Of a stretch of 64,000 bases of DNA, positions 5,456 through 52,579 are shown in pieces (within the stretch, counting starts at the first letter, position 1; each line of letters opens with the position of its first letter). The stretch spans positions 10,478,001-10,542,000 of the forward strand of contig NC_042999.1 of the NCBI RefSeq assembly GCF_006345805.1. Direction: 5' to 3'. The notes under the pieces were generated by a model. The model made no database searches. It was not told where the DNA came from and saw only the letters and a program-made list of their open reading frames with translations. The position numbers were made by a program, and so were the translations under genes. This stretch comes from Octopus sinensis (taxonomy: Eukaryota).

Positions 5456-5685
5456 CTCTATGCCACAGAACATGTTGTTGGAGAATTACTTTCTGTCCTG
5501 ACTGGAAATTCTAATTTGCTCGACTGATTAACTTTTATGGTTTTCGTGTTAATTAAGCAATGATCCCAATTGCTGATTCTATTAATGAGGCCCTTCTTTT
5601 TTGACCAGTACAAAAGAAATTGTGATCTCGAATCTAATTTTCTTTTCCTTTTTTGAAAATTGTATTTTTATTTTCTTTTTTCCAG

Positions 5686-6531
5686 ATGATTATTTGGCTA
5701 CTTTAGAAGTGAAACATTTCCGCCATGAGAATCTAACTTTCATAAAGACTTATCTCGATCTGAAAAAATGGGAAAATAAAAAGAATTTTACAATAAGCTT
5801 ACGTGTAGCTGAAAAATACCCCGTTATTATTCCTGGTCAACCTGTCTTTGAAGTCCTTGAAATACCGCAGGAAGAAAAGGCAAATAGTTTAAGCGTTTGT
5901 TCTCATACAGGTACTCTTGCTGTTGCTTGTCACAAAAAAGTTAACCTTTATATGATCCAAGAAAAATATTCTGCTGAATGTTCACGCTCTTACAAAGACG
6001 TTGTTCATATTTTAATTATAAACTGGGGACATGTCGTTAGCAAAGTGGTCATCAATGAAAGTTTCATAGCCTTAATGTCCAACCGCTATGCTCATGTTCT
6101 CAAGTTAAATTTTTATAATGGCTTTCGAAAAGTGGGCCTTCATATGAGTAATCCAGCTTCACAGGCAACATTGGATGCGAACCAACCAAAGGCTTCAAGT
6201 TCCTGCTTTGAGTCAACAGAATTAATTGCAGGGGATTTCGAAAATACTTCCTCACCCCCCTCTTTGTCGTCTAATGAATTACTCTTGCCCTCTGACAGCA
6301 GTTCTATTGTGAATATCAAAAACGACGAAGCATATACCCAATGGGTTTTCAGCTCAGATCAACGTGGAAGTAGAAAGAAACGTAGGAGTTTTGGACAAGG
6401 AACTCGTAATATCGCCGAAATAGCTAATGTTGCAATAACTCCAGACACAATTTATCTTCCCAAACTCCATGGAAATAGTGGAATTAATGGCTCAACCAAA
6501 TCGTTGCCTAAAGTTATGGTTCAAGTCAAAG
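5686..6531 (+). CDS. HPS3: HPS3 coding exon 2 (846 nt)
   Basis: Polypyrimidine tract + ccag acceptor; lies within ORF 5601..6569; DDYLATLEVK...VQVK; donor G|gtaact, phase 1. Confidence 0.92.
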
Positions 6532-7679
6532 GTAACTGTTGTTTCTTTTTTCATAATTTTTACCATTAATTATTCTATATGAACATAATTATGTTTTGTA
6601 AGGTTCTTTTTCTATTTTATCAAGAAGTTGATTATGTTATCTAGATTTTATACTCGAATCCAAAATAGTCTTAGTTTAAGCCCCACGACTGACTTTATAA
6701 GAAGATATCAGTCCTCTTTCTGATCGATCAAGGATTCAGACCAGCAATGGGTTCCTTGGTATTTCTGGCAGGAACACCTTATTTCCCATTGTCTTACTTC
6801 ATCTATTTGTCAGGAATAGTTCCCAGGGGGTAGATTTATCTTTCATTTTCTTCTTGCCATGAAATTGGAGCCAAACCTCAATTCTTGCAAACTGTTCAGC
6901 ATGTCAAGGACACTTCCATTCACTCTTTAATCCTTTCACTCTTTAATCCATTCACCTTTTGCACTCTTTTCTGTCTTTTAGATGAGTTTTTGTATTTCCT
7001 CATCTTTTAGAATCATTTCCAGTCTCTCTCTCTCTCTCTCCTCTTTCACTCAACTTTCTCTAATTTCTTTTTCTATTTTTATCTCTTTTTTTCCATTTTT
7101 CCAGTCTTTTGGATTCTTTTGTTTCTGGTGTTCTAAATTTATTTTTGTCCTTTCTGTTCATTTCTGCTTTTTCATTTCTATCTTCAAATGTGTTGTAATT
7201 ATAAAAAAAGTAATTTAAATTTTAAAGCCAATTTCTTTATTATTTTAAGAGAATTTTGTTCTTGGAAGTTTTCTCGTGGGTTTGTTGTGTCTGAGTTTTG
7301 TTAGAATAGGTATGAACATATCTATTCATTCCAGCAGATTCAAATGTAATCCTGTTGTTTACCCTCAGAAAACACTGCCCCCCATTGTCCCCTTACACTG
7401 GTGAATCTTGTGTGTTATGAACATGCATCATACAAAGGGAGGAGGTATGTTCTGATGATGAAAACCAACAGCAATCAGACAGTCATGTTTGAGTTAGCCA
7501 GAGTGTATTATGAACAAATAGACACATCATTGCTTGGATTCTCCCTCCTGTTCTGTGTGCACCCCATGAATTATTATTATCTGTTTGGCAGGCATCAGCA
7601 GGCATCAGTAAATAATTTATTTGCCGAATTATATAAACAAGAGTGTCTGTTTTTCTTAGTCGTCTGCTGGCTGGGTAGC

Positions 7680-7727
7680 TTTGACTGAGGAGACATACAA
7701 TAAGGATGAAACACTGCAGTGTCTCTG
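7680..7727 (+). ncRNA. Type-I hammerhead ribozyme motif (degenerate stems I/II)
   Basis: ga-CTGAGGA-gacatacaataaggat-GAAA-cactgcagt-GTC-tc; stem III is the perfect palindrome acactgcagtgt. Confidence 0.65.
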
Positions 7728-8121
7728 TCCTTTTACACTGGTGAATTGCGTGTGTTATGGACACATATTTTTTAAAGGGAAGAGATGTTCTCTGAGGACA
7801 AAAAACCAACATTAATCAGGTATTCAGGTTTGGATTTTTTCCAGGGTGTGTTAAGAATGAATAGACACACCATTGTTTCGATTCTCACTGTTCTGTGTGT
7901 ACCCCATGGATTATTTATGTTTGGCAGAGATCAACAAATAATTTGTTTGCTGAGTTCTATGAACACGGACCTTGTGCTTTTGTGTTAGAGTCATTTGCCT
8001 GGGAGGATAACTTTGACTGAGGAGACCTACAATAAGGTTGAAACACTAGGGAATTGCATGTGTTATGAACACACATTATTTAAAGAGAAGAAATGTTCTC
8101 TGATGACAAAAACCAACGTCA

Positions 8122-8155
<34 letters not shown>

Positions 8156-8620
8156 GAATTATTGTGTATTGTGCTCAGGTGCACTACAACTCATCAAAGG
8201 TGCATGTACAGTACATAGAATTATGTAGAAAAGTCAGGAAAGTGAACAGTGTATGAGTCATGATATACAGGTGTGCATGCTTATGGTGGGGGGAGGGATG
8301 TCAGGTGTAGTGTTGGTGAATTTCAGGAAGCATGGAGGTTTTAAAGGATGCAATGTCTTGGCAACTAACAACTGATGCAGGTTGTTTGTTCCATGCTTCA
8401 GCATCTCTGAGTGTGAAAAAATGTTTCCGAAAGGGATGGGAGTTGTGCTGTAGGGAATGCCCACATGTGTATTAGGACACATGGAATTCAAAAAGGTGCT
8501 CAATGTGGTTGTTGGTGCAATGGTCAATAATTTTATGGGTGTTTACCAAGTCAGTTGCCAGACTTTGGAGCTTCAATGTATCCCTGCCCAGAGTATGGTA
8601 GATGCCGGATGGAAGGTATT
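8122..8620 (-). mobile_element. CR1-clade LINE 3' fragment with (ATT)n tail
   Basis: Homologous to 9932-10487; degenerate IPSIRHLP...HKII...EHLF ORF end; inserted into the third unit of the 335-bp repeat. Confidence 0.8.
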
Positions 8621-9931
8621 TGTTTGAATTTGCCAGGATGTTTTTAGAATAAACTGAAACATCATTGTTTGGCTTCTTACTGTATCTCATGGATTATCAG
8701 GTATTAACTTATTTTGTATAATGGCCATAGCCAGTACTGCATCAACTGGCCTCCGTGCTGGTGGCACGTAACAAACACCATCCGATCGTGGCCATGCCAG
8801 CCTCGCCTGGCCTCCGTGCCAGTGGCACGTAAAAAACACCATCCGAGCATGGCCGTTCGCCAGCCTCATCTGGCACCTGTGTTGGTGGCACATAAAAAGC
8901 ACCCACTACACTCACGGAGTGGTTGGCGTTAGGAAGGGCATCCAGCTGTAGAAACACTGCCAGATCAGACTGGGCCTGGTGCAGCCTTCTGGCTTCCCAG
9001 ACCCAAGTTGTACCGTCCAACCCATGCCAGCATGGAAAGCGGACGCTAAACGACCATGATGATGATGATAATCTACTTGCTGTGATATGTATTTCAGTGT
9101 TAAGCTTAATAATGGATCAGAATCAAAGACCTGGCCAAAACCTAATGAAACAGGGTCCTGAATGTCTTAATTTTCCTTAAAAATAGTTTTTCTAAACTCA
9201 TACAAAAGCAAGTAAATTGTGTACAAAACGGTGAAATGCCAGCTTCTGGGTGTGGGTGACACCCCACTGCTGGCGTCTCATGGAATCTCTTGCTAAGTTA
9301 ATCCAACATGTTGCTTGCAGTTCTTATTTAACCCCAGGTTGGTTTACTTGCTAGTCTACTTAACTGCAGTATAGGTATTAATGTTTCGTTTTAACATTTT
9401 TACTTGTTTCAGTCACTGGTATGTGACCATACTGGAGCACCACCTTGTTGGATTTAGTCAACCAAATTGACCGTGCTACTTTCCTTTTTTAAGTCTGGTG
9501 TTTTAGTCTGTCAACCCCTTTTGCCAAGCCATTAGGTTAAGAAGATGGAAACAAAGCAACATTGATTTGTTTACATCCAAAGTGGTAAGGGGACTAGGAC
9601 ATTCTCTCCCCTCCCCTCTCTCTCTATCACATACACACATCTCACAGTTTCTGTCTACCAAATTCCCTGATAAAGCACTGGTTGATCCAGAGCTCTAAAA
9701 AATACTTCTCTGTGGTGCAGTGGGACTGAACCCAAACCATCTGGATACAAAGTAAACCCCTTAACCACACAGCCATGCCTCTGCCTCCGCTATCGAAATT
9801 CTTGTCATATCCCTGTATATTATCCAGGGCAAATATTTATAGCTTATCTCTTCAATTCCTCAGAAATTGAACTTTAGCATGCTAATTATTGGTCTTTTTC
9901 ATTAGAGATAAACTTTTAATTAAACAGCTCT

Positions 9932-10487
9932 GATAATAATAATAATGAAATTATTGTATACAGTGCTCAGGTGCACCACAACTTGTCAGAAAGTGCATAT
10001 AAAGCATATGCAGTAATGTAGAAATGTCTGGAAAGCGAACAATGTATGAGTCAGATACATGCTTGTGTGTGTATGGAGGGGAGAAAATCAAGTGTAGTGT
10101 TGGCGAATCTCAGGAAGCATGGAAGTTTTGAAGGATGCAGTGCTCCGACAACTAACAACTGATGCCGGCAGTTTGTTCGATGCTTCAGCAACTCTCAGCA
10201 TGAAAAAATGTTTCCTGAAGTCATGGGAGCTGTGCTGTTTTCTGACTTTGTAAATATGTCCACGGGTGTTAGATGGGTGGAGTTTGAAAAGGTGCTCAGA
10301 GTTATTGTTTGTAAGATGGTTGATAATTTTATGGGTGTCTGCCAAGTCAGCTGCCAGACGTCGGAGTTTCAATGTGTCCATGCCCAGGGAAGTAAAGCGT
10401 TCAGGATATGGCAAATGCCTGATGGAGGGTATTCTTTTGGTTGCACGTCGCTGAACAGCTTCCAGACGATTGATATGAGTAAACGAC
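9932..10487 (-). mobile_element. CR1-clade LINE 3' fragment (also ~20686-20950 + and ~48645-48970 +)
   Basis: ORF LEAVQRRATKRIP...TRGH...F..RVAEA.NKLP, the canonical CR1 ORF2 C-terminus; ATT-repeat tail. Confidence 0.88.
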
Positions 10488-17822: not shown

Positions 17823-18201
17823 AATTTGTTTTCACCAAACATCAAGATAAAATGCCTGCTAACTGAATTATCGTGTAATAGATAATAATAACAAAAATGA
17901 TAATTATTTCAACTGTAGGTATGTGATTAAAATTTGGTGGAAGGGTTATTAAAATAAAACTATTTGAGACTTTGATCTTTTGATTCATTTGTATGACATA
18001 TCAAACATCATCAGCTGTTAATCACTGACCAGAGTTAATTAGATCAGCCATTAAGTGCAACTGGATCTTGTGGGGTGAGGGAGTGTTTGTGTTGTACAAA
18101 AATATGAGGAAACTATTGGGATTATGAAATATCGATTCTGTTCCCTGACCAATCAATAAAAGGTTCAATATTTATTGATTCAATCTTTTCTTCTTTTGCA
18201 G

Positions 18202-18309
18202 ATCAAAGCGTTTTTGTAAATGGAAAAATTAAAGCTGACACATTACTTTATAAGATTGGTTTACCTGATATTTCATGGAGACACATGCAGCTGCTATGTA
18301 TATACTCAG
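18202..18309 (+). CDS. HPS3: HPS3 coding exon 3 (DQSVFVNGKIKADTLLYKIGLPDISWRHMQLLCIYS)
   Basis: ttttgcag acceptor, G|gtaagt donor, phase 1-1; matches HPS3 LLYRRFAPDIS...LQLLPIY block. Confidence 0.88.
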
Positions 18310-18338
18310 GTAAGTATCAATGATTATGTTGCCAAGGT

Positions 18339-20665: not shown

Positions 20666-22309
20666 ATATATATTTTATATATATTTTCACACTGAGAGTT
20701 GCTGAAGTATGGAACAAACTGCTGGCATCAGTTGTTAGTTGTCGGAGCACTGCATCCTTCAAAACTTCCATGCTTCCTGAGATTCACCAACACTACACCT
20801 GATCTTTCTCCTCTCCATACACACGCAAGCATGGATCTGACTCATACACTGTTCTTTTTCCAGACATTTGTACATTACTGCATATGCTTTATACGCACTT
20901 TTGACAAGTTGTGGTGCACCTGAGCACTGCATACAATAATTTCATTATTATATTTTATAAACTTTGTGTGCATGCATAGCCTTGTCTTCTTCATATCATG
21001 TGATGGTTGTAAACAAGCATCAAACCAGCATCCAAGTAATGTTGCTCATTTCCAGTTTTCCGTGGAAAACATGTGATTCCACGAGGAAATATTGCCTTGA
21101 TTGGAAATATTGCATTTCTTGGTTGAAGGCTGGAGACAAGAAGAGCATCCTGCTGTAGAAATTCTTCAATGAATTCCATCCAGTCTATGCAATCATGGAA
21201 AAGTGAACCTTAAAATTATTGTGAAAAATGCAATGTCACTTTCTCATGGTTTGGAAAGATCCAAGAATTGATATTCACCTGGAATCTCTAACAAGAGTTT
21301 AACGGTTTTCTTTCTAAGCAGACTAGAATCAATGAAAATAACCTATCTCCGTGTAATCTTGTGTGTTTTCACATTTTCTCAGTTCTCAATCTGCAGACAT
21401 AGATTAGAAAGAGTTAACTAATCTAGATAATCCACATAGGTGCTGGCTTGGCTGTGTGGTTAAGAAGCTCTCTTTGTAATCAAATGGTTTTGGGTTCGGT
21501 CCCACTGTGTGACGCCTTCCACACGGGATTGAAAAATACAAACTAATTCAGTTGACTTCATCTCTAGAAAATGATACAGTTAAATATTTTTAACCCTTTT
21601 CATACCAACACCTTGTTCTGTTTACAGATGACCCCTTGTTCACAGCATCTGCTGTCAGCTGTATGGTCGTGCTAGCTACGACACTTGCTGCTAAGATAGA
21701 AACTTTCTATTTTAGAATAATCTAAAAACTTTCCTTTAAAATTTGATGTTAATTTTTGTTCCAAACACCAACTTAATTAATACTGACGAAGTTGTTTCAT
21801 TAAATTCTTCATTATTTTCGAAATTATTTGAAAGAAAGGCTGTATATTTCCCCAGAAATTCTATATCCCTGGGCTGACTAAAGGCTTTGTTAGGGAATCT
21901 GTTAGACAGAAGCCCATTGTAAACATGTGTGTGTGTTTGTCCCTGCACTGCTTGACAACTGGCGTTGGTTTGTTTGCATCCCTATAACTTAGCAGTTTGG
22001 CAAAAGTGGCTGACAAAGTAAATAGCAGGCTTTGAAAAAGAAAAAGAAAAAAAAAAAGAAGAAATACATACTGGGGTGGATTTGTGAGACTAAATCCCCG
22101 TTCAATGCAGTGCTCCAGCTTGGCTGCAGTCCAGCAACTGAAACAAATACAAGATGAGAGATATGGCTTACAAGTATTAAATCTCATCCAACAAATAACA
22201 AACCTTTGGATATTTCACAAGAATTCTTTAAACTCGTTATTGTGTCCATAATGTTATAATTAAATAATGGAATTAAGAGGAGATTCTTATTTTGTTTTCT
22301 GTTTGACAG

Positions 22310-22617: not shown

Positions 22618-23078
22618 CAGTAAAGCACCAACCGATCGTGGCCGTCGCCAGCCTTCCCTGGCACGTAAAAAGCACCAACCGATCGTGGCCGTCGCCAGCC
22701 TTCCCTGGCACCTGTGCCGGTGGCACGTAAAAAGCACCAACCGATCGTGGCCGTTGCCAGCCTCCCCTAGCACCTGTGCCGGTGGCACGTAAAAAGCACC
22801 CACCGATCATGGCCGTTCCCAGCCTCCCCTGGCATCTGTGCCGGTGGCACGTAAAAAGCACCAACCGATCGTGGCCGTTGCCAGCCTCCCTTGGCACCTG
22901 TGCCGGTGGCATGTAAAAAGCACCCACTACACTCTTGGAGTGGTTGGCATTAGGAAGGGCATCAAGCTGTAGAAACCATGCCAAGAGTGGCACTGGAGCT
23001 TGACACAGTCCTGCAGCTCAAAGACCCTGTCAAACCATCCAACCCATGCCAGCATGGAAATGATGACGACGACTACGA
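22618..23078 (+). mobile_element. RTE 3'UTR copy with five tandem units (four of 62 bp, one deleted 47-bp variant)
   Basis: gatc(g/a)tggcc recurs at 22634, 22681, 22743, 22805, 22867, followed by the standard RTE tail. Confidence 0.85.
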
Positions 23079-24044: not shown

Positions 24045-24930
24045 AACCCATTGGTTTCATATCTAGTGTGAACTCGACATCTCGTCAGTCAGTTCTCTAA
24101 ACAATAACCGTTCTCTGCAAAGAATGTTTTTTTACACACAAGAATGCTGGTGATGGTTCAAGAAATAATCCTCTTAAAAAATTATGGATGGACGAGTTGT
24201 CTTCCTTTGCTTGATAGCTAGGTTTTCCAATTTTGAAGTAAAAATTTCTGAAAATGTGGACAACACCCCACGGCTTCCATCCTGGTGTTCAGGTAGCCTC
24301 CTGGCTTGTGGGTCCATAAAGATTATATATCTTTGTGCCATACACAATTTACACAGCCTTGTTCCATTGTCATAGAGTCCACAAGTTTCCAGTAATTTCC
24401 ACCTGTTGTTAAAGGGCGTATGATCATCCTTTAGGCACCATACGTATGCTGCGAGTGTCGTCGTGTTGCATCACTCCGGGACCCCGAAAGAAGATCTGTG
24501 GTTGTTCAGATGAATTTTAAATTTAGATTCACAAGATCCGACATAAATGTTAGTGTGTGTCCATGCGTTGGCGGCATTGATGTTACTGATATTTGTGCTG
24601 CTTCTGTCTGAGGCTACCTCTGCTTCGTACCCTGTAGCCTCAGTGTTACATCGGCCATCCACTGGGCATTCATTTCCAATCCTGCAGGAACAACCTACCC
24701 CTGTCCGTGGTTTAGGAGTGCTAAGTAGTTTTCATTGGGTGCACAACTGAAAGAGATCCTTAAATTATGTCTGTTAAAGATCTTTCTATATTTGTGTGAT
24801 CACGGGCAAATGCTTATCAACCAACCTAAGAAAAATCTTACCTATACTTGTCCAGACATTTAGGGAGAAGTGGGGAGTGAACCATAAGGTCTTGCGGTAG
24901 CGTTTCCTTTTGTGGTTACCCCATTCTTGG
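24045..24930 (-). mobile_element. Penelope-like element fragment (RT C-term/GIY-YIG endonuclease, 3' end with hammerhead relic)
   Basis: Minus strand: RKTLWFTPHFSLNVWTSIGKIFLRLVDKH, ...YVGSCESKFKIHLNNHRSSF, CKLC motifs. Confidence 0.85.
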
Positions 24931-25113: not shown

Positions 25114-25988
25114 AAAAATTATCTTGAATAAGTATCACATTTAAAATGTAAAAAATGTAGTTTGATTATTTTGAAATTATTTCCTTTGAAAATCTTTTCC
25201 CGAGTGATTTTCAAATATTTTCAGTATCAAAACACGTGTGTTTCTCTATTTGATATCATAATTAATCAACTGTCTTAGTCATTAGAGGTGGTTTTTTTTG
25301 TAGTTATTCTTATTTTTAATTGTATTTCAATAATTAATTACATAATTTGGGCCTCACAGAGGCAATGACGAAAGACCGAGACCTCTGGAGATATGATGTG
25401 ATTGAGAAGACCAGGCAAGGAAAGTGTCACATAACCAGCCCATTTAAAAAGTACCTTTGAATCATTGGGTGACATTCCGTGCTTAAGGGGACGTGACATT
25501 CCGTGCTTAAGGGGACCTATTGAGCTAAGTAAATCAAAATCTAAATCAAATCAAATCACAATCAAATGGAAATTACAGTTGTAGCTGTTACCTGTGCTTG
25601 TAGCACACGATAAGCACCATTCATTCATGCATGGACCGCTGGCTCCCCATGGCAGTGGCACATGAAAAGCACTATCCAAACGTGGTCGATGCCAGCACCA
25701 TCCCGACTGGCTCCTGTGCCAGTGGCATGTAAAAAGCACCATCCAAATGTGGCTGATGCCTGTACCACCTGACTGGCTCCCATGCTAGTGGAATGTAGAA
25801 AGCCCCCATTACACTCTTTGGAAGGGTGTCCAGCTGTAGAAACCTTGCCAGATCAGATTGGAGCTTAGTGCAGCCTTCTAGCTTGCCAGTCCTCAGTCAA
25901 ACCGTCCAACCCATGCCAGCATGGGAAATGGACATTAAAAAATGATAATGATGATGATTGTTGACCAAAATATTGTTTCCTTTTCTAG

Positions 25989-27755: not shown

Positions 27756-28542
27756 ACAACAAACAAGATGAGGACAAATATCCGTCAAATGTAAATAATG
27801 TATAATTGTATTGTTATTAATTCAATAACCAATATTGAATATTGTTGATGAGAAAAGGGTCTGTAAAACATATTTTAATGTCTTCTTCATTTCTCAACCA
27901 ACTTCTAAAATCTAATGTTTTCAGTTCTAAAATAACTTCTTCCAAGATCATCCTTGGCCAATTCCTTCAGCTATATGATGGAAATTGCAGTTGTGATACC
28001 TGTGCTGGTGGCACGTAAAAAGCACCAACCGAATGTGGCTGATGCCAGCGCCGCCTTGACTGGCTTCTGTGCCGGTGGCACATAAAAAGCACCAACCGAT
28101 CGTGGCCGTTTGCCAGCTCCATCTGGCACCTGTGCTGGTGGCACATAAAAAGCACCATCCGTTCGTGGCCGTTTGCCAGCTCCGTCTGGCACCTGTGCTG
28201 GTGGCACATAAAAAGCACCCACTACACTCTTGGAGTGGTTGGCGTTAGGAAGGGCATCCAGCTGCAGAAACACTGCCAGATCAGACTGGAGCTTGGTGCA
28301 GCCTCCTGGCTTCCCAGACTCTGGTCGAACCGTCCAACCCGTGCTAGCATGGAGAACGGATGTTAAACGATGATGATGATGATGACTGCTGACCCCTACA
28401 ACTGACATTTCCCCACACTGCAAACCCCTGTAGCTTACCCTGTAAATCCTTGCCCTCTCGCTCAGTTTTCATCCAATCCCTTGGACAATGTATCCTCATT
28501 TTCTGTTCCTGAATCTGTTTTTGTTTTTTCCCCCTTTTCCAG

Positions 28543-34786: not shown

Positions 34787-37094
34787 TGACTTTTCTTCAG
34801 CAACCAGTAAATAGTTAATAACTAGTAGCCATAGTAACCATTTAAAAAAAAATATATGTATTAAGAAACAGTTTGTGTTAACTGGAGTAGATGGGTTCAT
34901 CTCATCACTGCATGTGTGTGTGTGTAGGGGGAGCACTGCCATTACCATCATTTTTACAATGGCCTTTCTCTTGTGGTTGGCAGCTTCTGGTGGAGGAAGG
35001 GGTTTCATATTATTTGCTCTTGTTTGAGTTTCTTGTTACCATGTACGTCCATCTGGGATCTTGGAGTGCAGGAGGTCACGGTGCTTCTTGGAATCATCTC
35101 TCCCCACCTTATGGAGATTTTCCAGGTGTTTTTGGCCAGACATTACATAGCTGTAGACCTTTGATTTGCCGTATCTGGTCCTTATTTAGATGGAATGGGT
35201 GGGACCTTTGCAACAGTGTAGTGGCATCCTGTTCAGGGGCTGGTGTAACTCTCTTTGCCAAAGTTTGGTGCTGCCTTCCATACTCGGCATCTTTACAATA
35301 TCACATTCCATTTTTAATTCACTTTTAATGTTTCTTAATAAATGTGATGAAACGATCATATTTTTGTGGCTTCAGCTTTGCTTTTTCCTTTGTGAAATCA
35401 GTTTTATTTGGTTTGTTGTGTTGCCTTTTTTCCCCCCCTCAATGACTTCATTTCGATGTTTTATCCCCCCCCCAGCTATTATCAGGCATTCACGTATGGT
35501 GTTTCATACACACCTATACATTTGCATACAACTGAGCTTCCATACAAAACCAATGAGAACTTCATACGTCCACCTGCTTCCTCAGCTTGTCCCCATTCGT
35601 ATCAAACAGTTGACCCCTGGCCAGCTTCATTCCCCTCCATCCTCTCCACTCTCTCTCGCTGCTGTTGCTTTCCATCCTGCATCTCATCATCACCCTCTCT
35701 CTCTCTCCAATCAACTCATTCTCATTGCCTTCACACTCGACCAGTTCTTGGCAAATATTTTACTTTTTCTCCCTTCCTCTTTCACAATCCTCTCAGTCTC
35801 TCTCTCTCTCTCTTCACGAGAGCGTGAGTGCATCGTTTTATTCCTCTAAAATAATTATTACAGGAGAACTGAGTCACAGCAGAATCAACTCAAAGTTGAA
35901 GGTTTGTATTTTGAATATAAAGAAAGACAGTTTTCCTTAGCATCTTCTTTCAATGGTCCAGTCTGTTTGGCTGTAAATGGGTACCATACTAGCTACCACC
36001 ATTTGTGAACCTAATTATATAGCACACCTTATTAAGCAAATTCTCCAAGTACAAAATACCCTGACTAACCTTGGTTAGTCAGGGTATTAGAGATAGATAT
36101 AGAAATGGTTGAAAGAATTCTTGATCTTAAATCTCTTTCCAATGCAATTTCACGATTGGTCACAAAATGGCATCAGATTTGCAGCGAAAAATTAACCAAG
36201 AAGTCAGGATAAATCTCTAGTTTTAATTTGTCATTGTCCCCATCAATATCTACCGATCTTGAACTATCTGGGTCCTACATTAGTCAAAGAGGTCTATTGG
36301 TTTATGTTGCCCCTTCCAACAAGGTGCACACCTGAACATAGTTGTTTGTAGAAGACTAGCAGATGGCCATACATGATAGCAGTCTCTCTCTCTCTCTCTC
36401 TTCGGCTACCAGGCACCAGTGCCATCATAGCCATTACAACAACAACCACCCCCCCCCAAAAAAATGATCCTTAAACAGTGTCACCAATCAATCATCCAAG
36501 ATTGGTAGTTTTTTTTTTCTTTCTTTTTTGGTCTAGAGAGGCTGGAAGGCAAAATGAACCTTGGCAGAATTTGAACTCAAAGCCTGGAAACTCCGAGCAA
36601 ATACTGTGGAGCAATGCATCCAGTGACTCTGACAATTAATTACTTTTATTACTATCTTCAATATCCGCAATATGATTTGTGACGGAAGCTATTGAAAATA
36701 TGATGGATTAACGATAACAGTTGAACTATTTAGAATTATAGAATAGCTGAACGGTTTTTAATAAATAGATTAATGTAGAAATTATGCAGAGAGATTTATG
36801 TATCAGTTATATTCTGTGATTGTTTTGTTATTAACTCATCAATATCGACATATTCTCTACAATGTCGATAGTTTGATATTGTCTTCATCTCTGGCTGCTG
36901 TCAAGTGAAGATGGAAATGGATTTTAGTGATCCTGAAAAGAATTGCCTTAGTATTAGTATTATTATTTCCCTTTTTTATTGACAATGCATTTTTATCTTT
37001 AATTTTGACAATAATAATAAAAACTGAAATTGTATAATTTTTCACAATAACACCTATTTATTCTCATAATATTCTGGTAAACTCAAGTGGGAAT

Positions 37095-37445
37095 ATGCTG
37101 ATTTGTTGTCAGAGAATGTCTCTTCTCTTTAGATGATGTGCATTGATAACACATGTGATTCATCGATGTCAGGGGACTTTCAGACACTGTTCTGTTTCAA
37201 CCTTCTTGTGTGTCTCCTCAGTCTAAACTATACCTCCAGACCAATGAATCTACCGACCTCTTCTTTATAAAAATCAGCAGCCAAATTATCTGCTGATGCC
37301 TGCCAACAGATTATAATTGATGGGGTACACACAGAACAGGGAGAGTTCAAACAATAACATATCTGTTCATTCTTAATACATCCAGGCAAATTCAAACATG
37401 AAGATCTGATTGTTGTTGTTTTTCATCAGAACATCATCTCCCTTA
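37095..37445 (-). repeat. Dispersed inverted copy (about one unit, spanning the junction) of the 335-bp hammerhead repeat
   Basis: Reverse complement matches units at 7.4-8.1 kb, including aga-CTGAGGA-gacacacaagaaggtt-GAAA-cagaacagt-GTC. Confidence 0.75.
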
Positions 37446-37664
37446 ATTAATTTTTTCAATTCCACTGAAGTAAAATTTATCCAGGTAAAAACTGGGGACA
37501 ACAATCCCTCATTAAACCTGGTTTAAATTTTATTTCTCTTTTACTCCCTTTAACAGTTGTGATATTTAATCCCAAACAAGATCTGCAATCCTCTTGGAGA
37601 TTCTTTCTCTTCTCTTTTTGTTGAGGAAAGTTCCAATGACTTTTTTCTTTGAAATTTCTTTTAG

Positions 37665-45997: not shown

Positions 45998-47139
45998 GTA
46001 AGTTGGAATCAATAAACGAAAGGGAAATAGGTTTCTAGAAATAATAATAATTATAGTAATGGTTTCAAATTTTGGGGGAAGGGCTAAGTTGATAAAATCA
46101 ACCCCAGTACACAACTGGTACTTATTTTTATTGACCCCTAGAAAAATGAAAGGCAAAATTGGTCTGGGTAGAATTTGAACTCAGAATGCAAAGACAGTGG
46201 AGAAATGCTGTTAAACATTTTGTCTGCCAGTTTAGCATTGGAGATCTTTTGCCTCATCCATTGATGAAGAGTGTGACTACTGGCATGAAAGGATGCAATT
46301 GATAACAACAATAACGATCATCATCATCATCATCGTCGTTTAGCGTCCGTTTTCCATGCTAGCATGGGTTGGACGGTTCTACTGGGGTCTGTGAAGCCAG
46401 AAGGCTTCATCAGGCCCAGTCAAATCTGGCAGTGTTTCTACGGCTGGATGCCCTTCCTAACGCCAACCACTCCGTGAGTGTAGTGGGTGCTTTTTACGTG
46501 CCACCCGCACAGGTGCCAGACAGAGCTGGCAAACGGCCACGAACGGATGGTGCTTTTTATGTGCCACCGGCACAAGGGCCAGGCAGGGCTGGCAACAGAC
46601 ACGAAACGGGGCGGTGCTGGCAACGGTCGCGAAACGGAAGGTTCTCTTACATGCCACCGGCACTGGTAACACATCTACAATTTCCATTGATCACTTTCCA
46701 TTCTGATCCTCACTTGCCTCAACGGGTCTTCACAAGTAGATATTAATAATAATAACAATAATAATGAAATAACGGTAAATGAAATTTCTACTAAAAGTAA
46801 AAAAAAGAAAATGTGTTGAGTTTAGATTATTTTCAGGTAAATTATAATATTCTTGGCACTGTTAATTCTTCTGTTGCCATGTCGTTGATGAGAAATGGCT
46901 CAGGTAAAAAATTGATTGGTGGGGTGGGTGGGGGTCTGTAGATGGAGAATAAAAGATCACCTGTAAGTCAAAGAAGATGAAATATCTTAGAGGAGTTTTA
47001 AGGAACAAGAAAATGGTTTTCTTGTCCTTTCCTTGCTTCTCAGAAAGAGAAGTTCAGCTCAGTATGTTAACAAAGAAACACTTGTTAGTTATACGGTGGG
47101 ACTTACTTGTTATAATAGTAAGGACTTCCTTTACTCCAT

Positions 47140-48035: not shown

Positions 48036-49758
48036 GTAAGTCCCCAATCATTTATCTACGAATAACTAATTCTTATAATTAAACACAATCCCAATACCTG
48101 CCCCACCACTTCCACCTGATATATTTGTATCTATTTTTATAAACTCTGAAAAGGTGTGAGTTAATGTCATCATCATTATCATCATCGTTTAACGTCCGCT
48201 TTCCATGCTAGCATGGATTGGATGGTTGGACTGAGGACTGGCGAACCAGATGGCTGCACCAGGCTGGCCACAGTCTGTGAATTCTAATCCAATCTTTTGT
48301 TCTGAACTGTGACGTATTGAGGGACAAAATAAGACATATCTGTGTATGGTGTGGGTCCCATGATTGATTGGACCCTGGGAGTTCCTCAGAAGGCTTTCAA
48401 TAATATCTCACAAAATCTTATCCGGCAACAATGTGTTTCTATTGATGGGGATTTCCTTTAAGAATTAAGAATGCCTTTGTCTTGAGATGACCAGAGATGG
48501 ACCGTCAAACATTTCACTTGTAGACTGGTCCTTGTTTCAGTTGCCCTGCGTCAACTCTTATTAGCAAAAACACATTCAGCCAGAAACTACATTTTAGGTT
48601 TACTGCATTTTACATACATACATACATACATACGTACGTACGGTAAACACCCACAAGGTTATCAACCACCTCACCAACAACAACACTGAACACCTTTTTG
48701 ATCTCCATGTGTCTAACACACGTGGACATGCCTACAAAGTCAGAAAACAACACAGCTCCCATGACTTTCGGAAACATTTTTTCACGCTCAGAGTTGCTGA
48801 AGCATGGAATAAACTGCCTGCATCAGTTGTTGACTGCCATGACACTGCATCCTTTAAGGCCCTCATGCTTTCCGAAATCCGCCGAAACTACACATGATTA
48901 TATATACACTTTAGATGAGTTGTAGTGCACCTGAGCACTGTACACAATTATTATTATTATTATTATTATTATATACATACATACATACATACATAGGCGC
49001 AGGAGTGGCTGTATAGTAAGTAGCTTGCTAACCAACCACATTGGTCGGCTATAGCCCCGAGCCGACCAATGCCTTGTGAGTGGATTTGGTAGACGGAAAC
49101 TGAAAGAAGCCTGTCGTATATATGTATATATATGTGTGTGTGTGTTTGTCCCCCTAGCATTGCTTGACAACCGATGCTGGTGTGCTTACATCCCCGTCAC
49201 TTAGCGGTTCGGCAAAAAGAGACCGATAGAATAAGTACTGGGCTTACAAAGAATAAGTCCCCGGGGTCGATTTGCTCGACTAAAGGCGGTGCTCCAGTAT
49301 GGCTGCAGTCAAATAACTGAAACGAGTAAAAGAGTATATATGAGAGAGAGAGGGGCACAAGAGTAGCTCTGTGGTAAGAGGTTTGCTTCCTAACCAGTGG
49401 GTTCTGGGTTCAGTCTCACTGCATGGCATCTTGGGCAAATGTTTTCTATCATAGCCTGTCAGTGGAATTGGTAGACGGAAACTGAAAGAAGCCCATTGTG
49501 TGTGTATCTCTGTTTGCCCCTCCCCACCATTTGACAAGTGGTGTTGGTGTGTTTACATCCCTGTGACTTAGTAGTTTCACAAAAGAGAATGATAGAATAA
49601 GTATGAGGCTTTAAATAAGGAAGTGCTGGGGGGGGGGTCGATTTGATTTTAAAAAAACCCTCAAGGTGGTGCCCCAGCATGGCCACCATCAAGTAAAAGA
49701 TAAAAGATATATAAAAGTATAAACCTTCATTTATGTGTCCTAATTATCTTAATTACAG

Positions 49759-50884: not shown

Positions 50885-52579
50885 CTGGGGGCATGGATAA
50901 GGGTGAATCTGGGGGCAAGGATAAGGGTGAATCTGGGGGCATGGATAAGGGTGAATCTGGGGCATGGATAAGGGTGAATCTGGGGGCATGGAGAGGGGTG
51001 AATCTGGGGGCATGGATAAGGGTGAATCTGGGGGCATGGATAAGGGTGAATCTGGGGGCATGGAGAAGGGTGAATCTGGGGCATGGATAAGGGTGAATCT
51101 GGGGGCATGGATAAGGGTGAATCTGGGAGCATGGATAAGGGTGAATCTGGGGGCATGGATAAGGGTGAATCTGGGGGCATGGAGAAGGGTGAATCTGGGG
51201 CATGGATAAGGGTGAATCTGGAGGCATGGATAGGGTGAATCTGGAGGCATGGATAAGGGTGAATCTGGGGGCATGGAGAAGGTGAATCTGGGGGCATGGA
51301 TAAGGGTGAATCTGGGGGCATGGAGAAGGGTGAATCTGGGGGCATGGAGAAGGGTGAATCTGGGGGCATGGATAAGGGTGAATCTGGAGGCATGGATAAG
51401 GGTGAATCTGGAGGCATGGATAAGGGTGAATCTGGGGGCATGGAGAAGGGTGAATCTGGGGGCATGGATAAGGGTGAATCTGGAGGCATGGATAAGGGTG
51501 AATCTGGGGGCATGGAGAAGGGTGAATCTGGGGGCATGGATAAGGGTGAATCTGGGGGCATGGAGAAGGGTGAATCTGGGGGCATGGATAAGGGTGAATC
51601 TGGAGGCATGGATAAGGGTGAATCTGGAGGCATGGATAAGGGTGAATCTGGGGGCATGGAGAGGGGTGAATCTGGGGGCATGGATAAGGGTGAATCTGGG
51701 GGCATGGAGAAGGGTGAATCTGGGGGCATGGAGAAGGGTGAATCTGGGGCATGGATAAGGTGAATCTGGAGGCATGGATAAGGGTGAATCTGGGGCATGG
51801 ATAAGGGTGAATCTGGAGGCATGGATAAGGGTGAATCTGGGGGCATGGATAAGGGTGAATCTGGGGGCATGGAGAAGGGTGAATCTGGGGGCATGGATAA
51901 GGGTGAATCTGGGGGCATGGATAAGGGTGAATCTGGGGGCATGGATAAGGGTGAATCTGGAGGCATGGATATGGGTGAATCTGGAGGCATGGAGAAGGGT
52001 GAATCTGGGGGCATGGAGAAGGGTGAATCTGGGGGCATGGAGAAGGGTGAATCTGGGGGCATGGATAAGGGTGAATCTGGGGGCATGGATAAGGGTGAAT
52101 CTGGAGGCATGGATAAGGGTGAATCTGGAGGCATGGATAAGGGTGAATCTGGAGGCATGGAGAAGGGTGAATCTGGAGGCATGGATAAGGGTGAATCTGG
52201 GGGCATGGATAAGGGTGAATCTGGGGCATGGATAAGGGTGAATCTGGGGGCATGGAGAAGGGTGAATCTGGGGGCATGGATAAGGGTGAATCTGGGGGCA
52301 TGGATAAGGGTGAATCTGGGGGCATGGAGAAGGGTGAATCTGGGGGCATGGATAAGGGTGAATCTGGGGGCATGGATAAGGGTGAATCTGGGAGCATGGA
52401 TAAGGGTGAATCTGGGGGCATGGATAAGGGTGAATCTGGGGGCATGGATAAGGGTGAATCTGGGGGCATGGATAAGGGTGAATCTGGGGGCATGGATAAG
52501 GGTGAATCTGGGGGCATGGATAAGGGTGAATCTGGGGGCATGGATAAGGGTGAATCTGGGGGCATGGATAAGGATGAAT
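50885..52579. repeat. 24-bp G-rich minisatellite (ggcatggataagggtgaatctggg), ~70 units
   Basis: Directly visible, with ata/aga and ggggg/ggagg variants and occasional 23-bp units; explains the [16 protein letters not shown] ORFs. Confidence 0.97.

Follow-up and report, generated by a model that had tools for sequence, protein, structure and literature searches.

A stretch of 64,000 nucleotides of the Octopus sinensis genome (assembly GCF_006345805.1, contig NC_042999.1, positions 10,478,001 to 10,542,000 of the forward strand; the window) contains part of the HPS3 gene and, inside one of its introns, a tandem array of a non-coding unit of about 330 bp with hammerhead ribozyme motifs at the unit junctions, which is a fossil copy of a retrozyme family. 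HPS3 coding exon 2 is found at 5685..6545 (+) and is 100% identical to the Octopus vulgaris protein and 97% identical to that of O. bimaculoides; the next coding exon is at 18138-18320, and the array lies between the two in sense orientation, as a sequence-only reading of the window had proposed. The numbering as intron 2 considers coding exons only, 5' untranslated exons being left out of the count. The array is formed by 2.6 units arranged head to tail at distances of 340 and 332 bp, which bear out the periods given in that reading, and was mapped with a profile built from natural family copies. The insertion starts at 7368..7386 (+) with what appears, by comparison with the family junction and below the profile threshold, to be the decayed 3' half of a hammerhead (GAAA and the start of stem III), likely truncated at its 5' end. 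It is followed by unit A, a full monomer delimited by two cleavage sites (7387..7723, +; profile positions 1-316 at 7387-7714, with the triplet ending at 7723), by unit B, also a full monomer (7724..8047, +), whose identity to unit A is 71-80%, varying with the aligner used, and by the first part of unit C (8043..8120, +; profile 9-86). Unit C is interrupted at 8122..8591 by (AAT)11 and an unrelated high-copy repeat, both outside the 330-bp family, and its last part (8614..8698, +; profile 96-186) reaches the longer of the two 3' termini of the family. Thus, of the tandem extent of 7368..8700 indicated previously, the units stand and about 8121-8613 does not. Two stop-to-stop frames of about 110 aa run over the unit and neither has a Pfam match, in agreement with the proposed lack of coding capacity. 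The interrupting repeat, at 8141-8591, is of a type associated with AAT microsatellites; it has a depth of about 10^5 in run X10, against about 10^2 for the 330-bp unit, and also occurs at 9933-10387, 20681-20951 and 48642-48897. A second, independent copy of the family, consisting of a 5'-truncated unit, is located at 37044..37446 (-), with its hammerhead core at 37221 and its end at the short 3' terminus (profile 147).

Both internal junctions of the array show the expected CTGAGGA-stem II-GAAA arrangement, at 7685 and at 8017. Hammerhead 1 (7679..7729, +; core 7685-7711) has the palindromic stem III ACACTGCAGTGT and the GTC triplet ending at 7723 that had been described; it is broken, with 3 of 6 pairs in stem I and 2 of 3 in stem II, where one mismatch is present. 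Hammerhead 2 (8011..8047, +; core 8017-8043) has stem II GACCT/AGGTT, also as described, the fourth pair of which is a private substitution, its sister copy at locus L133 having A at this position; compared with this sister, which is 95% identical, it lacks 26 nt, and the deletion removes the 3' side of stem III, the cleavage triplet and the 3' strand of stem I. The proposal that the two copies together give a complete type I hammerhead fails on this last element: the 3' strand of stem I is absent from both, and only other loci supply it to a composite. The window locus is accordingly predicted from its sequence to be incapable of self-cleavage, and its copy of the repeat is likely inert intron sequence. 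Li, Clavereau and Pollet (2026) define an active retrozyme by two consecutive complete hammerheads, and the window array, where both are broken, falls outside that definition; this makes the window copy a fossil, while the family is still a member of the class.

The genome-wide DNA search revealed a dispersed, multicopy family. With unit B as query, at least 58 genomic matches were obtained from the 40 candidates scored out of 300; the hammerhead core pattern has 60 exact matches, compared with none for the reversed control, which places the motif beyond chance, and a third search, using as query the first 167 nt of another copy, returned mostly new loci. From sets of 57 and 37 loci, which share just two members, one of them the window, a rough Chapman estimate gives about 730 loci; the Rfam family search of the genome scored 74 of 265,813 candidates, a sampling from which copy number is not derivable. 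At least 115 loci were examined, namely 90 non-redundant mapped ones, after 14 overlapping stretches had been dropped, and 25 in a replicate set. Full units are 313-347 bp long, with a guanine plus cytosine (GC) content of 33-41% (n=23), inside the 150-450 bp and low GC expected of a retrozyme without long terminal repeats. The divergence from the commonest letter of each column has a median of 20.5% and ranges from 10 to 35% (n=110 pieces), indicating that the family is old; the window units differ by 16.5%. At such an age the identity between units of an array, which was considered as a test of rolling-circle origin, is uninformative, with medians of 69% within and 66% between contigs. These data, with the profile mapping, support the earlier suggestion that the window array represents aged copies of a dispersed tandem family. 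A dispersed, non-coding, tandem unit of about 330 bp with a type I hammerhead is a non-LTR (lacking long terminal repeats) retrozyme family.

The ribozyme motif is well recognizable at the family level. In 54 junctions (53 distinct) from loci selected by homology, the commonest state at all 18 proposed stem positions is a standard pair, and 76% of the cells are paired, compared with 27-47% when the partners are slid. The topology is that of a type I hammerhead, with a 6-bp stem I (CTTTGA/TCAAAG) followed by an internal loop and then by a 4-bp extension, a stem II of 3 bp and a stem III of up to 5 bp; stem I, the absence of which from the consensus would have spoken against a retrozyme, pairs in the commonest letters. 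At every one of the 12 positions of the core, the catalytic letter is found in 42-53 of the 54 copies. A hammerhead model search had also been suggested, and its outcome is divided: the Rfam scan of the window gave no hammerhead, with chance matches only, whereas, among 12 family loci scanned, L033 passes Hammerhead_1 (RF00163) with 37.4 bits against a gathering score of 34, and L081 (30.0 bits) and L110 (24.6 bits) remain under it. The idea that the palindromic stem III favours dimeric cleavage is weak, since the family stem III, with up to 5 pairs (74% of cells paired), exceeds the 1-2 bp said to force this mode. Nor are the variants of the palindrome taken as a sign of selection, because CpG-type decay accounts for most of the variation: at C11.1-G12 the dinucleotide is TG in 30 copies, CG in 12, CA in 11 and TA in one, a pattern of CpG loss as in neutral decay. 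When single hammerhead regions and unit B were folded thermodynamically, no z-score was significant. The intact copies at L031, L032 and L033 favour an alternative hairpin, GAGACA/UGUCUC across the cleavage site, over the ribozyme fold, again with z-scores that are not significant; by this modelling the hairpin may be a possible off-state of the ribozyme.

Could this locus, or the family today, be an active source of a circular RNA of about 335 nt, as in mussel and axolotl? The window copy is in sense within an intron, and 15 of 113 junctions at other loci, across both sets, retain core and stems, including 12 of 59 in loci selected by the core pattern; L027, L031 and L033 are examples of naturally intact copies. 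Against these observations stand the two broken ribozymes of the window, the median divergence of 20%, with the least-diverged piece still at 10%, and the state of the CpG at 11.1-12, which survives in 12 of 54 copies, with the catalytic G12 lost in another 12 of 54; present activity is therefore highly improbable.

The strongest feature of the repeat is its insertion anatomy, which is of the Penelope type. Among 159 pieces that end before a ribozyme, 46 have their 3' end at profile 138-149 and 43 at 180-193, compared with 6.7 and 8.1 expected from simulated random truncations, a simulation that used units which had helped build the profile; in the 25 replicate loci, selected on positions 1-167, the two termini account for 11 and 10 of 47 ends. 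The termini are placed about 147 and 188 nt downstream of the cleavage site, where arrays do not end, and delimit a tail of about 40 bp; they read about ATTGTT and GAATTATTA, and are followed by visibly unrelated DNA. The window array stops at the long terminus (8698), so that its Penelope-type tail corresponds to about 8670-8698, and the copy at 37 kb stops at the short one. Conversely, 5' ends are variably truncated and spread along the unit, with a single bump at profile 186-200 (16 of 96, compared with 7.1 expected, p=0.002; 3 of 19 in the replicate). In 31 of the 90 loci two copies meet through a 5'-5' inversion junction, and only one locus has a convergent junction; both outer ends could be classed for 14 of 32 inverted junctions, and 12 of these have one short and one long end, so that the tail is on one side only (p=0.005). 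Immediately outside the 3' ends the AT content reaches 74%, compared with 64% further out (n=99), an excess that may partly stem from imprecise end calls within the AT-rich termini.

This anatomy matches that of Penelope elements with endonuclease. Insertions of Penelope-like elements have been described as partial tandems with an inverted copy truncated at its 5' end and a tail of 30-40 bp, often on one side only (Craig et al. 2021, PMC8557442); for the Poseidon element PAc, in vitro data place the tail between two internal start sites of reverse transcription downstream of the hammerhead, with a nuclease that prefers ATT and a ribozyme whose cleavage is dispensable (Frangieh et al. 2024, PMC11167929). 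The octopus family shares with these elements the partial tandems, the 5' truncation, the inverted truncated copy and the one-sided tail, as well as the two 3' termini downstream of the hammerhead and the AT-rich targets. It differs in having no open reading frame (ORF) for a reverse transcriptase (RT) or a GIY-YIG endonuclease; moreover, its termini are AT-rich, whereas PAc has an AC-rich stem-loop, and their distances from the cut are about 147 and 188 nt, that of the first PAc site being about 85-92 nt, as obtained by subtraction from the figures in PMC11167929. On the match in the two 3' termini, the 5' truncation and the 5' inversions, a non-coding hammerhead family was likely spread in trans by a Penelope-like RT and endonuclease.

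Long interspersed elements (LINEs) offer a different source of enzymes: the unit would be a short interspersed element (SINE)-like repeat moved by a LINE, with 5' inversions produced by twin priming and an incidental hammerhead. LINE-driven insertions also show truncation and inversion at the 5' end, and fragments of LINE RT are common here. However, no common poly(A) or simple-repeat tail was seen at the 3' ends of the family, and its insertions end within the unit at two termini separated by 40 bp, both distant from the cleavage site, with a one-sided tail, a signature that PMC11167929 calls unique to Penelope-like elements; this explanation has very little probability.

Spread at the DNA level, by unequal exchange or ectopic repair as for a satellite and with no RNA step, is more remote still. 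In its favour, family loci are clustered, 25 of 79 mapped loci having a neighbour within 2 Mb compared with 10.3 expected, and one recent transfer that looks like a DNA-level event joins the window to three loci within 2.4 Mb. Nevertheless, fixed 3' ends, ragged 5' ends and the 31 versus 1 ratio of 5'-5' inversions have a polarity that DNA recombination does not give, so that this mode is largely refuted as an explanation of the family. The recent transfer involves L004 (10.90 Mb), L133 (9.70 Mb) and L134 (8.54 Mb) on contig C3: in about 16,800 between-locus comparisons only 10 exceed 86% identity, and all of them pair the window with these loci, which bear near-identical tracts of the window A-B segment in or beside older copies. 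The L004 tract (7438-7878) is 99% identical, ends at the short terminus and is followed by a different tail; the L133 tract (7660-8043) is in register on both sides, and the L134 tract (7472-8019) ends inside the ribozyme. The A-B dimer, diverged and with its ribozyme broken, was transferred in a single piece, which indicates that no monomer circle took part, and ectopic conversion between neighbours is the simpler reading of these tracts. In runs X1 and X2, presumed to be RNA and available as assembled contigs, a depth of about 7 is found over 7438-7893, with variants of the paralogue L004; these contigs do not cover the unique flank of the window and bear neither on expression or silence of the window copy nor on a circle.

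The genome was also analysed for a coding partner. A Penelope protein profile, derived from those of 120 Penelope-type proteins that are 600-800 aa long and representing one group of clades, had no match in 118 family stretches (508 kb, including two wider re-fetches of loci already counted, most loci having 1.5-kb flanks), and recovered 29 of 30 controls; as no Penelope coding sequence accompanies any of these stretches, the element is non-autonomous. Searches for an autonomous partner by tblastn, Pfam, unit profile and RNA model were negative; the Pfam scan, which took the 148 longest of 445 frames, carries little weight since both Penelope positive controls were missed. Candidate helpers are present in the genome, in the form of several multicopy Penelope-type families (L176-L222) whose frames run for 700-960 aa with no stop, some with hammerhead-like motifs repeated upstream and downstream of the ORF. 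The window itself contains, at 24174-24731 (-), a Penelope-like 3' remnant with a GIY-YIG-type region, as judged by motifs and relatives, and with its own hammerhead (core at 24088, about 85 nt after the ORF), which is unrelated to the 330-bp unit; the family of this element is abundant (9071 candidates), and its copies mostly terminate in TA microsatellites, some 45 nt beyond GAAA, with a further shared tail-like extension at 3 of 19 ends.

A closer rival holds that the unit is debris of the pseudo-long terminal repeat (pLTR) of an extinct or unsampled autonomous Penelope-like element and was never mobile itself. The insertion anatomy is indeed that of Penelope elements, most Penelope insertions are reported to be heavily 5'-truncated (PMC8557442), and the protein profile represents a single group of clades and, at most loci, was applied to 1.5 kb of flank. 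On the other hand, whole units recur at a fixed period of about 330 bp (23 full units), and what is found upstream of a unit is another unit or unrelated DNA: 87 upstream flanks have no common extension, the few shared stretches stopping before the boundary or joining just 2-3 loci. With Penelope coding sequence in 0 of 118 stretches, and thus no autonomous Penelope ORF attached, the possibility raised previously that the unit is only the long terminal repeat of such an element is unlikely; pLTR ancestry of the unit is compatible with mobilisation in trans as well.

Several results weigh against a retrozyme mobilised by Penelope enzymes. The window array is not bordered by a target-site duplication of at least 5 nt. 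Most arrays comprise 1-3 units, and no long homogeneous one was observed. A pLTR partner resembling the unit was found neither in 30 endonuclease loci nor in 50 further Penelope loci (from thousands of candidates), the best unit-profile match in the latter having an E value of 0.57. In the inverted junctions, 2 of the 14 classed are short at both ends, and 18 of 32 were not classable at both. As regards the ribozyme, only 3 of the 54 homology-selected junctions keep core and stems, and covariation does not rise above shuffled alignments, the observed values being reached in 98-287 of 500 shuffles. Finally, natural monomers folded as circles exceed shuffled sequences only slightly in stability, with mean z-scores of -0.65 (sense) and -0.49 (antisense; n=23), and alignment folding gives a single 6-bp hairpin; one natural circular monomer reaches z -5.1 among these 23 decayed units, in which 20% decay could erase a pairing signal.

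Mobilisation in trans by a Penelope protein would proceed as follows. The tandem array would be transcribed, and the protein would bind the unit RNA and nick AT-rich DNA; reverse transcription would start inside the unit, about +147 or +188 after the cleavage site, and copying would run back across the ribozyme junction for 0.5-3 units. Since copies run through the ribozyme junction, the template would be either a religated circle or an uncleaved multimer, and the odds between a self-cleaved, ligated circle and an uncleaved linear multimer are about even. A more specific version, tentative and less likely than not, is that the Penelope RT copied circular retrozyme RNA from the tail site across the ligated junction, tending to stop after one lap, and that the new complementary DNA may home in register into older copies. 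The one-lap part is suggested by the 5' ends enriched just past the long terminus, at profile 186-200, and the homing part by the 99%-identical tract in L004, which ends exactly at the short terminus; transcription starting near position 190 on an uncleaved linear RNA would give the 186-200 peak equally well, and local gene conversion would account for the tract.

Non-LTR retrozymes were defined by Cervera and de la Peña (2020, PMC7229834), who include mussel and name Penelope elements as a strong candidate mobiliser; their units are of 350-390 bp in Mytilus, 330/350 bp in axolotl and 220-245 bp in Acropora. The octopus family is similar in its non-coding tandem unit of a few hundred bp, with 33-41% GC here, in having, in each unit, one canonical hammerhead of type I whose stem I is 6 bp long, and in its dispersal alongside autonomous Penelope elements. 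Differently from those retrozymes, it is old, decayed, present mostly as 1-3 units and known here from DNA alone; its stem III has up to 5 pairs and theirs 1-2. Tails and inversions, both found in octopus, are not reported in the accessible text of that paper. Neither its main text nor the accessible text of an earlier article (Cervera and de la Peña 2014, PMC4209133) mentions a cephalopod, octopus and squid included in the case of the former; 235 Hammerhead_1 matches are given for the giant squid genome, with no further description in the part of the report considered here (PMC6962438). Recently, retrozymes were proposed to be Penelope derivatives on the basis of co-occurrence and pLTR phylogeny (Li, Clavereau, Pollet 2026, 10.64898/2026.07.22.740005), in a sample described as 31 vertebrates, three insects, one coral and no mollusc. 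The octopus family agrees with that proposal in being non-autonomous and probably Penelope-dependent; here the evidence comes from the anatomy of the insertions, and the search for a homologous pLTR partner was negative. Another relative is Chlamys MRC1 (PMC8557442), also a non-autonomous element of Penelope type with pLTRs and head-to-tail copies; it is, however, from green algae and, unlike the octopus unit, its 3' ends are similar to those of autonomous partners, and Chlamys elements are described there as mostly devoid of hammerheads. Plant-type LTR retrozymes, characterised by PBS, PPT and a 4-bp target duplication, are different, with a type III hammerhead in long terminal repeats in place of type I and head-to-tail units. 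The literature considered describes no octopus retrozyme, nor tails or inversions in retrozymes, Repbase and Dfam, which may hold the repeat as Penelope or unknown, being outside this search. Thus, the repeat is a fossil, so far undescribed octopus member of the known class of non-LTR retrozymes and non-autonomous Penelope elements.

Other elements were noticed in the same material. A second hammerhead family, with a related core and passing Rfam Hammerhead_1, is present at L135, L138, L139 and L140/L141/L144; it includes a tandem of 431 bp with 96% identity as well as inverted arrangements, looks younger, and is a better candidate for a live retrozyme. At L144 a weak remnant of a Penelope endonuclease is found about 790 nt downstream. 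An isolated hammerhead of 41.9 bits with stem II GUCC/GGAC, unrelated to the other families, occurs at L136:1501-1547 (contig C5, 60.04 Mb) and is possibly a conserved single-copy ribozyme. In the window, an HPS3 intron contains a GC-rich minisatellite of 24 bp (50885-52579; 71 copies, 95% identity), and tandem units of 61-67 bp from a common SINE-like repeat recur at 2359-2526, 8742-8903, 22622-22924, 25639-25803, 27998-28219 and 46486-46605.

The value of these findings lies in the family-wide Penelope footprint and not in the window copy. Animal retrozymes are assumed to borrow the enzymes of Penelope elements, and the support presented in the publications considered here consists of a shared ribozyme type, co-occurrence and pLTR phylogeny; the octopus family adds a physical footprint of integration by Penelope on a tandem unit that is non-coding and carries a ribozyme, and extends retrozyme-type repeats to octopods. 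The combination of tail and inversions allows any retrozyme family to be tested simply, from the genome alone, and points to about +100 to +190 after the cut as the RNA segment that a Penelope protein would need to recognise. If true, the one-lap reading would provide evidence from the genome for the model in which animal retrozymes pass through a circular intermediate.

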